DNA from: Eledone cirrhosa
Taxonomy: Eukaryota
Direction of reading: 5' to 3'
Assembly (NCBI GenBank): GCA_964016885.1
Contig: OZ024741.1
Location: 155,558,001 to 155,622,000, forward strand
Length of the DNA stretch: 64,000 bases
Shown here: positions 51,990 to 60,559 of the stretch, piece after piece
Position numbering within the stretch: the stretch's first letter is position 1
How the letters are laid out: every line of letters begins with the position of its first letter
Position numbers and translations under genes: made by a program
The notes under the pieces: generated by a model
Database searches by the model: none
Seen by the model: only the letters and a program-made list of their open reading frames with translations
What the model was told of the DNA's origin: nothing

Positions 51990-52405
51990 CGTCTTTCTAC
52001 TGCGCCAACGTCTTGACCACTTGTGGCTCACCTGGAAATGAAGGTGAGTGTGGAGAGAGAAGTGCTCCCCCAGTACATTGCTAAAAAGTGGATGAATATG
52101 GCGAGAATGGCCCGCGCTTATAGACTAGCTAATTTGAGGAGGAGAGGGGTGCTCTCCCAGGGTGCCCTAGAAGCGTAGGGTGGTGCAGAATTGGTGGGGA
52201 ACCTGAGTTACCCCTGAGTCGGCCACCCCTTATAGGGGAATTTATTTTGTTATATTTATGCATAGTTTATTATATATTTTTTATATCTTCATTGTTAAAT
52301 TAGTCTTGCCATTATGCACTTTTACTTGACCTTATTGTAAACCCCCACTGTCCCTGTCTTTGTATTGTCCCCTACATGTCGAGCCTTGTGGCCAATAAAT
52401 GAAAT
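51990..52405 (+). mobile_element. Tx1-type LINE 3' end fragment
   Basis: HLEMKVSVEREVLP and 3' UTR homologous to 18860-19190 and 60130-60500. Confidence 0.75.
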
Positions 52406-52945
52406 CATCCTTACGGGATCGATAAAATAAAGCACCAGTAACGTACTGGGGTCGATTTAATCGACTTTCCCCTCCCCCGAAAGTACTGGCCTTGTGCCTA
52501 TACTAGAAATCATTATTATTATTATTATTATGGATTGGCAGTATCGGTAGAGGGTCGCACGCCATGCTTTGACGCATAGAGTTACGGCTCTTGCCATTCT
52601 AAGTTCAAATCCCGTCGAAGTTAATTTTGCCTTCCATCCTTACGGGGTCGATAAAATAAAGTACCAGTCACGCACTGGGGTCGATTTAATCGACTTTCCC
52701 CGCCCCCCAAATTGCTGGCCTTGTGCCTATATAAGAAACAATTATTATTATTATGATGGATTGGCAGTATCGGTAGAGGGTCGGACGCCATGCTTTGACG
52801 CATAGAGTTACGGCCCTTGCCATTCTGAGTTCAAATCCCGCCGAGGTTAACATTGCTTTCATCCTTACGGGGTCGATAAAATAAAGTACCAGTAATGCAC
52901 TGAATTATTGCTGTCCTTGTGCCAAAAGTAGAAACAATTATTATC
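52406..52945 (+). mobile_element. Head-to-tail array of three SINE units separated by (TTA)n
   Basis: 3' half at 52406-52530, then near-full units at about 52531-52752 and 52757-52945. Confidence 0.9.
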
Positions 52946-57299: not shown

Positions 57300-60259
57300 A
57301 TGACCTCACTCAGAATAGGCAGCATAAATGCGCGTGGCTTGGGGTCGTCATGGAAGCAGGGCTACCTGCTCAACGACCTCAGGTCACTAAACATAGATGT
57401 AGTGGCCATCAGCGAGACCAGAATCTCCGAAGCACAGGCCTTCGCACCGATCTTCGGCGGCTATGATGTGTACGCACCTCCTAGCCGTCCGGGATCGGGG
57501 GGAGGAGTTGCTGTGCTTTTTTGGAGAGGTTTGGATCTCGCCACAAATTCGTGATCTGTGTGCTTGACTTAGATAGGCTTCATAGACGAGGACCCGGCTA
57601 CTGGAAGCTAAATGCGTCCTTACCAGCGCGCAAGACCTACAGAGACCGGATTAGCGAACTAGTTAAGTGGGCGTTGACGGGGGCCATCGTCAACAACAAG
57701 TGGTGGTTTGCTCTGAAAAGAGCAATTAGAATAGAGAGTCCATTAGGTTTAGTAAGGCTTTAGCAATAGAGAAAAATAGAGCAGAGGTAGAATAAGTTAG
57801 AAAATTAGACGAGGTGCTTAGCAAAGGCCTCGCGACCGACGTACTTGCGGCGAAATTGGCCCCCTTGACCAATTCTTCAATGCAAAGCACGAACGCTGCG
57901 TTGTCAGAGCTAGGGTGCGTGCTCTCAGACACGAGGGGACGAAAGCCGTTCAATGGGCCCGAGTGGCGGAGGCGCGTCGTGGCAACAAAGCCACGATCCA
58001 GTCTTTGGTGGACCACGACGGGCGCATGCTACTCGATCCCGGGCAAATGTGTGAAGCTTTTCAGCGACACCTCGCACAGCTGTTCGGGGGCAGCGGCGGG
58101 CCGGATCGGGGGATGGATTTTAGTTTCTACCACGACGGACTGCCGCGGCTCTCGGCCACTGAGGCGGAGTGTTGCGAAAAGCCGATAACAGCCGTTGAAG
58201 TACGGGAGGCAATGACTGGCTGCACAAGGGGTAAATCGCCTGGTTTGGATGGTCTGCCCTATGGACTTTACGTACAGATTCCAAACTTGTTCGGAGGCCT
58301 CTTGGCGGACGTCTACTGCAACTGGCAACAGGACGGGAAAATTCCCAGCTCTGTGAGCCGAGGAGCTGTGGCGCTGCTGAGAAAGGATCCGAACAAGGGG
58401 GATAACATAGATAATTTCAGGCCCATAACTCTGCTAAACACAGAGTTCAAGATTTTGGCCAAGTTGCTAGCAAAGAGGGTGGCGCTTGTCGTTGGTGGTC
58501 TGGTGGCAGAAATGCAGACATGCGCCATTCTCGACAGATCCATCCACGACAACTTCCACCTCATGCGATACATCGTAGAGAGGGTAGCTAGGGAATCTGG
58601 CACGGGTGGGTCCTTGATCAATTTAGATCAGTCGAAAGCTTTCGATAGGGTCGACCATCGTTAGCTAGCGGCAGTCCTGAGGGGGGCTGGCTTTGGGCCC
58701 GTCTTCAGAGGCTGGATCGCTGCTATGCACAGCGACATCTGCTCTGTGGTGAGAGTGAACGGTCACTTTTCGGAACCGTTCAACATCATGCGCTCGGTCC
58801 GCCAAGGATGTCCCCTCTCGTCCCTCTTGTACGTCTTGACTCTTGAGCCATTACTGCACAAACTTGAGACGTTGAGGGGGGGGGGGTCCCGCGCGAACTA
58901 GGATGCGGAAGATCCATGTCAGCATATGCGGACGATGTCACCGTAGTGGTGTCGAACGCCAAACACATCGAGGCGATCGGCACTACACTAAAAGAATACG
59001 AAGCGGTGACAGGGGCAATGATCAACCAGGAAATGTCTGGTCCATGCCGTCCAACAGCGTCGTCGGGCGCTGGACGGACGGACCGGTTAAATTGCTAGGG
59101 GTCTGGTTCGGTCCGGACCTCCAGACGGACAAAAACTGGGACGAGGTGACGAGCAGGGTGGCTTCTCTCACCCAGAAATGGGCGGCAGGAAGCTATCCCT
59201 GAAAGGTCGAGCGGAGGTGGCTAACGCGTACATCGCGTCCGTCATCTACTACCGCCTAACCGTCGTACCTTGTCCTAAGCCCCGCCTGACTACGCTGGAG
59301 CGTTTGCTCTTTCGCTTTTTGTGGAAGGGACGCGCTCCGATGGTTAGGCGGTCCATCTTCTGTCAACACCCACTACGTGGAGGGCTGGGCATGCCTGGCT
59401 GATGATGAGCAGACACGCGCTCAGTTTACGACATCTCCACCTCTTCCTCGACGGTGATCAGGTGTGGTCGCCGTTTGCTAGACACGTATTTTCCCAGCTC
59501 GTCTCCTTGACGGATCTGCAGTCCTGGGTCAAGCGAAGACCGAGAGGGAGCGCTTGGAGACTGGAATGTCTTCAGGCGCTCACAGCCCTCGACCAATCGG
59601 GCAATGTGATCGGTGGAAACTCCACTTTGGCGTTCTATAAAGGATTAATGGAGGGGAAGAGCGACGACGTACTTGGAGAAACTCTAGGCGTCGACGAAAA
59701 TCAACTAGCCAATTTCTTCGGAAGGACTTTCGGGCCTGGGCCTATGGACAACTTCCAGAAATCCCTGGCCTGGCAGTGCAACCGAGGAGCTTTGCCAGTT
59801 CGGGATAAACTCTACAGGCATGGAGGTGCCGTCAGCCGGGCATGTCCGAGATGCGCGCATGGCGACGAAATCGTCCTGCATGCACTCGTCCAGTGTCCGA
59901 GCATTGCTGACTTGTGGGTTTATGTCGAACAGCTGCTGTCACGTGTAGGACGGATCCGGCTATCAGCTGAGTCCATCGTGAGGATTGCCCCGCCCTCTTC
60001 TTTTAGCCTGGAAGGGCAGGCAGTTTTTATCTGTCTGGTGGCCATGGCGAAAGAGATAGTATGGTGGACACGTTTGAAAGGGCTGAAGACGAACACTTAC
60101 CTCTTCGGTGATGCCCTGATTAACTTTTTCAAATTTCATTTGAAAAGGGAAATCAGGGTAGTGTGGGAAGTGCTCTCTTCCCAGCTTTTTGTTGAAAGAT
60201 GGGTGAAAGAAGCAAGTATGGCCCGAGTGAATGGGTCTACTCTGAGTATGTGTCTGTAA
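57300..60259 (+). pseudogene. Tx1 ORF2 (APE endonuclease with internal deletion near 57545, RT, Zn knuckle), several frameshifts
   Basis: SINARGL..ISETR, GPGYWKLN, KSPGLDGLP, NFRPITLLN, LDQSKAFDRVDH, VRQGCPLS, AYADD, GGLG, CPRC..HALVQCP. Confidence 0.9.
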
Positions 60260-60559
60260 ATTAAAGGTGGAAAACTGGGAGAGGGCACTTGCCCTGGTGG
60301 TCAGGGTGACTGTGGTCTTTTAATGGGCTTTCTCCACAAATGTCCCTCGGAAGTCTCCCCCTTTGGGGAATTTTTCTTTATTATTTTATTACATCCTCTG
60401 TTTTTTTTACACGCAGAAATGCCCAGTTGTACCGTCCTGTATTGTCCTGTATTGTCCTTAATGTTTACTTTATGTAAACCCTTGTGGTTAATAAAGAAAA
60501 CATTATTATTATTATTATTATTATTATTATTATTATTATTATTATTATTATTATTATTG

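Follow-up and report, generated by a model that had tools for sequence, protein, structure and literature searches.

A 3' module shared with L1/Tx1-type LINEs points to a candidate partner for an abundant octopod SINE

Short interspersed elements (SINEs) moved by stringent long interspersed elements (LINEs) resemble their partners at the 3' end. In the pairs described from eel (UnaL2/UnaSINE) and zebrafish (ZfL2-1, ZfL2-2), this likeness consists of a common terminal sequence with a conserved loop, an exchangeable stem and a simple-repeat tail rather than poly(A) (PMC4176376, PMC3747384); in zebrafish L2 recognition is specific for the loop, and the stem is replaceable (PMC4176376). Such tail-sharing has a recognised exception in the L1-group LINEs. 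L1 tails were found in only 3 of 58 surveyed SINEs (PMC3747384), and conserved 3' hairpins with compensatory changes, shared between an L1-group LINE and SINEs, are described for maize (ZmSINE2/3 with LINE1-1_ZM) and Chlamydomonas (SINEX-3_CR with L1-1_CR) (PMC3472496, PMC3747384). Crocodilian SINEU elements have been inferred to use the machinery of the Tx1 element Tx1-Mar from shared targets and overlapping ages, and the Tx1 families Kibi at (TC)n, Koshi at (TTC)n and their crocodilian relatives at (TTCC)n/(TTTC)n are microsatellite-preferring LINEs with an apurinic/apyrimidinic-type endonuclease (APE), often stacked head to tail (PMC4494074). Likenesses to all of these systems recur in a 64,000-nt stretch of the octopod Eledone cirrhosa (assembly GCA_964016885.1, contig OZ024741.1, positions 155,558,001 to 155,622,000, forward strand; hereafter the window, whose own numbering we use), which holds a full-length L1/Tx1-type LINE, here called family A, and several copies of an abundant SINE with a tRNA-like head and the same kind of 3' end.

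Based on our findings, we suggest, with a probability of roughly 70%, that this SINE is mobilised by a group of ATT-tailed L1/Tx1-type LINEs whose second open reading frame (ORF2) protein would recognise a predicted CUUGU hairpin. We draw this from two likenesses, a common 22-nt module and the same kind of target-site duplication (10-21 bp, beginning ATTAT). The module consists of a 3-bp stem around CTTGT, followed by AGAAA and then the ATT tail. A first-pass annotation of the window had proposed the partnership from LINE and SINE ends that it quoted, and these ends are indeed in place; their motif, CCTTGTG-N8-AGAAA, occurs nine times in the window, always exactly, at eight SINE ends and the LINE end, whereas 0.33 occurrences are expected and none of 100 shuffles reaches nine. 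When anchored at the tail, three SINE ends have 14-17 of 22 positions in common with families A, C, F and G, a level reached at 0-9 of 35,568 masked ATT-anchored background sites; because of this difference, chance is excluded as the origin of the shared end. Five other LINE ends agree with the SINE at 2-7 of 22 positions. Family B stood outside the masked test owing to a 1-nt insertion, and had scored 11-12 of 24 ungapped in an earlier one. Within family A the motif is conserved, contrary to what would have refuted the first-pass proposal: among the 30 best-matching copies, ranked by likeness to the window copy, 28 have the 12 fixed bases and 26 the exact 22-mer. The main elements in the window are as follows.

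55110-60501, + strand: full-length L1/Tx1-type LINE of family A, a decayed copy (5' end common to 30 copies; Pfam Exo_endo_phos, RVT_1, zf-RVT)
55317-56775, + strand: remnants of the first open reading frame (ORF1) with a CX2CX4HX4C zinc knuckle (ORFs 55317-55958 and 55891-56775; knuckle from the translation, Pfam silent)
57300-60259, + strand: ORF2 remnant with APE endonuclease, reverse transcriptase and C-terminal zinc finger (ORFs and Pfam)
60477-60501, + strand: 3' module of the family A copy, with stem AACC/GGTT and loop CTTGT (60477-60489), AATAAA (60490-60495), GAAA and two more bases
52028-52405, + strand: 5'-truncated 3' end of family B, a second Tx1-type family; module with 9-nt spacer, stem mutated in this copy
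52406-52531, + strand: 5'-truncated SINE (copy 1) attached to the family B end, (ATT)6 tail
52532-52752, + strand: long-subtype SINE (copy 2), almost complete, its head containing words like an A box and a B box; the module is at 52716-52740
52758-52945, + strand: SINE copy 3, short subtype; ATT tail adjoins the 3' end of a Dong-like element
19542-19750, + strand: SINE copy with a 19-bp duplication starting ATTAT
37133-37318, - strand: SINE copy, short subtype, 15-bp duplication
45582-45762, - strand: SINE copy, short subtype, 13-bp duplication

The module is predicted to fold into a small hairpin, with paired changes in its stem. The stem around CTTGT reads AACC/GGTT in family A, GGCC/GGCY in B, GCC/GGC in C, D and F, and GGC/GCC in the SINE, and the three inner pairs are formed in 120, 113 and 112 of 121 LINE ends and in 91, 92 and 95 of 97 SINE ends. 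Two pairs show compensatory changes: pair 2 is C-G in the LINEs and G-C in the SINEs, and at pair 3 family A has A-U where the rest have G-C. Stem covariation is 0.342, compared with at most 0.142 for slid partners, in an alignment of 16 rows of which one (TxB_CC) has no 5' side and so carries a gap in three pairs. The hairpin is part of the minimum-energy fold in all five LINE ends and in four of eight SINE ends.

The second likeness is the footprint of insertion. The duplications of 13-19 bp previously noted at SINEs in the window were confirmed (19 bp at the copy at 19549, 15 bp at 37135, 13 bp at 45584 and 13 bp with one mismatch at 9275), and among 95 random SINE copies 51 have duplications of at least 10 bp, compared with 7-8 in shuffled pairings. 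In 38 of the 95 the duplication is non-simple and lies at the tail, with a median of 16 bp and a start at ATTAT. Truncated Tx1 copies carry similar marks: short-tailed Tx1 ends number 469 genome-wide, 30 were sampled and 17 had the junction in view, of which seven, five of these from family A, have 10-21 bp duplications whose first base coincides with the start of the ATTATT tail; loci L171 and L178 are further cases. Some Tx1 inserts are extremely truncated, at 25-45 nt, with clean 16-21 bp duplications (L171, L178, L312, L334, L352). For comparison, in cells L2-type inserts are flanked by 5-bp and L1 inserts by 15-bp duplications (PMC4245944).

The activity periods of the SINE and the Tx1-type families overlap. 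Divergence from the respective consensus at non-CpG positions is 4.9% (19 random copies) or 4.1% (47 copies) for the short SINE subtype and 9.6% (10) for the long one, and 4.2% (38) for family A, 5.0% (9) for C, 4.1% (9) for F and 7.5% (18) for B; the samples were selected by motif and are biased young. By age, A and C fit the young short subtype and B the older one, and family A is a plausible driver of the short subtype.

Family A belongs to the L1/Tx1 group of APE LINEs by its domain set and its closeness to L1. Its ORF2 carries an APE endonuclease (PF03372), a reverse transcriptase (PF00078) and a zinc finger (PF13966), and an unbroken 1,138-aa frame of this family at locus L191 has human L1 ORF2 as its best match among solved structures (E 3.9e-52, residues 4-853). 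The window copy itself has frameshifts and stops and, relative to copy L137, a gap of about 436 bp at 57541 in the endonuclease region. The nearest named ORF2 matches are from Argonauta hians (73%), Oryzias latipes (37%) and Patella caerulea (36%), and none of these nearest names gave a Tx1 label. A CCHC zinc knuckle in ORF1 is a feature of the Tx1 clade. Here the translation of the ORF at 55891-56775 contains a CX2CX4HX4C knuckle, Pfam giving no ORF1 match. At least five ATT units precede 30 of 30 full-length family A copies (the LINE query itself held 8 nt of ATT), which places the family within the definition of target preference as more than 20% of flanks of one sequence type (PMC4494074). 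The knuckle, the ORF2 domains and the preference for ATT arrays fit the Tx1 clade; hence the label L1/Tx1-type, which reflects these features rather than a tree with named Tx1 references. In the flanks of L101-L130, the array in front of a full-length copy is often a tail, belonging to a SINE or to another Tx1 copy, so that the elements furnish each other's targets. The 3' untranslated region (UTR) of the window LINE is covered as far as about 60488 by contigs of two other organisms; this match stops short of the 3' end and is not used as evidence.

Family A is one of a group. A total of 121 LINE ends clustered into families A, B, C, D and F plus singletons, and reverse transcriptase regions upstream of the other family ends are 71-84% identical to that of family A. 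Genome-wide, exact patterns give 14,679 GAAA-type and 3,569 TGAAA-type ends, the latter being family B with its 9-nt spacer. To this sister family also belongs the end at 52384, which the first-pass annotation had mistaken for a fragment of the LINE at 55110-60501. Tx1-type families with (TATC)n tails and the same module (L220-L234, L055, L064, L186) are often stacked head to tail, their tail and target switched and the module unchanged. Two old Tx1-like ends (L341, L345) read CCTTGTGC, like the SINE, with a 9-nt spacer; their lineage is possibly closer to the donor of the SINE tail.

The SINE is about 190-220 bp long and occurs as a short and a long subtype. Like other elements of its kind it is short, non-coding and of high copy number, with a simple-repeat tail, duplications and 5' truncations (39 of 95 random copies do not start within the first 10 nt). 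In an evenly spaced sample of 790 kb, the SINE body was found at 97 of 105 tail anchors, which extrapolates to about 370,000 copies; one 26-nt pattern is matched exactly by 141,817 SINE ends genome-wide. It is the commonest short interspersed repeat of the sample, with 113 matches compared with 31 for a separate CORE-like SINE. Words resembling an A box and a B box lie about 60 nt apart in its head, as judged by eye against what we take to be the consensus, while ARAGORN found no tRNA and Rfam no tRNA match in the SINE. Ohshima and Okada reportedly described the octopus SINEs OK, OR1 and OR2 in 1994 as abundant and of tRNA type, and OR1 and OR2 are said to be cited as CORE-SINEs. Unlike these two, the SINE here shows no bivalve CORE words by eye; nor was a match seen by eye to the Meta, Meta-Deu and CORE sequences of bivalves, as given in part of a published supplement (PMC4824008). 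SINE-type ends lack an upstream SINE body in 8 of 259 cases (one Tx1 end, six apparently truncated SINE ends and one unexplained), the 259 coming from 2.0 Mb of partly overlapping loci. Rare chimeras (L239-L242) fuse a SINE body to a Tx1 end at the common CCTTGTG. A SINE subfamily bearing the Tx1 end was considered and rejected: only three exact chimeras exist genome-wide, with L239 as a variant, and we read them as sporadic junctions at the shared motif.

We propose the following course of events. The SINE's transcript would come from RNA polymerase III (Pol III), and the ORF2 protein of ATT-tailed families would bind the CUUGU loop of its hairpin, by analogy with zebrafish L2. At 5'-ATAAT/R-3' on the bottom strand the endonuclease would make a nick, the RNA's short AUUAU end would pair with the nicked DNA and prime reverse transcription, and a second nick about 16 bp away would produce the duplication. 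AATAAA may serve RNA polymerase II processing of the LINE only, the SINE having lost it and retained the loop, the stem and AGAAA; the loss fits a Pol III transcript. LINE RNAs that run on into long (AUU)n may favour long arrays, and the short-tailed SINE RNA may accept any ATTAT.

Several observations weigh against our interpretation or restrict it. LINE and SINE are alike up to the stem and no further upstream, and the shared 22 nt are partly A-rich. Pair 4 is formed in only 81 of 121 LINE and 52 of 97 SINE copies, so the stem is 3 bp long; a 4-bp stem was rejected, as the GGCA ends predicted after TGCC failed in 8 of 8 cases (CGCC in seven, CACC in one). The compensatory events number only two, and L341 and L345 break pair 2. 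The other four of the eight SINE ends, two of them stem mutants, fold differently, and no SINE end had a better fold energy than its shuffles (z -0.39 to +1.04). Nor was any LINE family found that combines the stem of the SINE with AATAAA: of 23 matches one was of SINE type, and it proved to be a SINE. With respect to the footprint, the Tx1 sample was selected for short tails, and a stricter subset gave 5 of 10 compared with 1-3 in controls, after a nested-copy filter that dropped 7 of 17 rows, some of them wrongly. SINEs lie behind at least four ATT units in 3 of 56 cases, in contrast to the long arrays in front of all 30 full-length family A copies. The module is present in at least five families, being retained in D and F with their (TATC)n tails, and does not tell which family acts. 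Finally, a young CR1-type family diverges by 4.1% (30 copies), so age fails to separate Tx1 from CR1-type elements. The claim that one Tx1 family, that of the window, drives the dominant SINE is narrowed by these results. A Tx1-type partner is upheld by the shared end, the compensatory stem changes, the duplications and the ages, but the choice of family A is not, as other families carry the module, C, F and G match the SINE end as well as or better than A does, and the array preference differs. Likewise, of the properties that the first-pass annotation wished to see compared, duplications and ages agree and the preferred array length does not.

We weighed three other explanations. An unlikely one is that the tail derives from Tx1 and Tx1 proteins still move the SINE, the hairpin going unread: pairing of AUU with the nicked target would suffice, and the module would be kept for 3'-end processing of the LINE around AATAAA. 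This would account for the position of AATAAA directly behind the loop in every LINE family, for a stem that is marginal in length and energy and for the clean duplications around very short truncated copies. However, the SINE is without AATAAA and yet still has the loop together with a stem that pairs, pair 2 having changed on either side, and its loop and stem columns are invariant in 88-96 of 97 copies while the spacer differs between subtypes. Recognition of the hairpin by the ATT-tailed L1/Tx1-type group remains the reading that we prefer.

The other two place the partner outside the Tx1-type families. The ends of 12 non-Tx1 families in the sampled loci carry tails of (GAT)n, (ATGT)n, (TAGA)n, (ACAT)n, (AAT)n, (TTGAA)n, (AAATG)n and (CAA)n, AT-rich tails and, in one family, (ATT)n; these ends were determined by eye, since automatic calls had overrun into the flanks for several, and the clade labels are presumed from characteristic features. 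The (ATT)n family is the young CR1-type one, so an ATT tail alone is not diagnostic of the partner. Many of its copies have a 957-aa open frame, three are 99% alike, exact ends with ATT behind them number at least 5,320, its age is like that of the SINE and some copies sit at SINE tails. That this family drives the SINE, with the Tx1 likeness as a relic or a product of chance, nevertheless seems quite improbable: its end agrees with the SINE at only 2-3 of 22 positions and has a longer hairpin of its own, and among 23 truncated copies a script flags eight with at least 10 bp, of which three are plausible duplications by eye, compared with 38 of 95 for the SINE (p 0.015). The short duplications of L2-type inserts noted above also speak against it. 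The CR1-type family (L270-L272, L278-L307) further shows a duplicated 3' UTR unit. A sampled area of about 2.0 Mb of the 3.0-Gb genome leaves room for another LINE family, of the RTE, I/Nimb or other type, as the true partner with a better matching end, the more so as the ends of three families (L193, L198, L245/L250) were not located, a search with PF09004 for L2-like elements was silent everywhere, including on its controls, and is uninformative, and known SINE-LINE pairs mostly involve CR1 and RTE (PMC3747384). We consider this highly improbable: the better match that had been feared did not appear, as none of the 12 non-Tx1 ends carries the module or matches the SINE tail, and none of the 259 SINE-type ends lies inside a non-Tx1 LINE.

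In the window, the shared ends lie in a nest of elements at (ATT)n tracts, which runs from the family B end through three head-to-tail SINEs, a minus-strand Dong-like element, (ATT)36, the family A LINE and (ATT)19 to a second Dong-like end. Its remaining parts are the following.

52946-55001, - strand: Dong/R4-like LINE, 5'-truncated and bounded by (AAT)n (tblastn 53028-54991, 62-85% to the protein of window positions 1714-4512); the clade label is presumed from characteristic features
55002-55109, + strand: (ATT)36 array preceding the LINE, its target
60502-60558, + strand: (ATT)19 tail/target; read on the opposite strand, also the (AAT)n tail of a Dong-like element whose end is near 60559

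Dong/R4-like elements (52946-55001, 60559-61048 and also 1086-6504) lie in these tracts as well, facing the other way as (AAT)n, so that three element types meet in one microsatellite. Positions 51800-52030 resemble another Tx1-type 3' UTR, interrupted by the family B copy, and have no relative among the sampled loci. Elsewhere, the window contains an interstitial (TTAGGG)n array of about 35 units (35755-35971), a tandem repeat of five copies of a 91-93 bp unit (23194-23655) and, on the minus strand at 33922-34593, a 223-aa frame that may be a Helitron Rep/helicase fragment. At locus L193 (4538-5050), a near-perfect inverted repeat of about 250 bp comes after an RTE-like fragment.

Our literature search found neither a SINE with a 3' tail common to a Tx1 element nor a reported partner LINE of the octopus SINE described here; Repbase, Dfam, SINEBase, Ohshima and Okada 1994 and the octopus repeat supplements lay outside its reach and may name one. 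In the Octopus vulgaris assembly, SINEs are given as 11.6%, with recent copies mostly unclassified, in the part of the report consulted (PMC13282606). If true, the partnership proposed here would be a stringent, poly(A)-independent one within the animal L1/Tx1 group, and would identify the enzyme responsible for much of the expansion of SINEs in octopuses. A shared hairpin would also be relevant to the question whether mammalian L1 recognises poly(A) as a derived trait. The natural variants (A-U/G-C and C-G/G-C pairs, ATT and TATC tails) define a direct mutational test. The broader proposal, that an animal Tx1 lineage picks its RNA via a minimal CUUGU hairpin and its target via a swappable tail repeat (ATT or TATC), and that the dominant octopod SINE, at some 370,000 copies, hijacks this lineage with a re-paired hairpin, is in our view evenly balanced between true and false.

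Compared with the systems described at the outset, this one differs from each in a different respect. Unlike in the UnaL2 and ZfL2 pairs, the presumed partner is of L1/Tx1 type rather than L2, about 22 nt are shared, the stem is 3 bp, the duplications are about 16 bp and binding of the hairpin is predicted. The maize and Chlamydomonas pairs are plant and algal, and the algal pair has about 80 nt in common, with a poly(A) end, whereas here the host is an animal, the tail is ATT and the LINE prefers microsatellites. The targets, (ATT)n and (TATC)n, are unlike those of Kibi, Koshi and the crocodilian Tx1 families, for which no partner SINE is mentioned in the consulted part of their description (PMC4494074). 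SINEU, the only Tx1-dependent SINE class found in print, was recognised by its targets and not by its tail; it has small nuclear RNA heads and a poly(A) tail, and for SINEU-1 no LINE of the same 3' end is recorded as detected in that part of the source (PMC4494074), whereas the octopod SINE has a tRNA-like head and a tail in common with its candidate partners.

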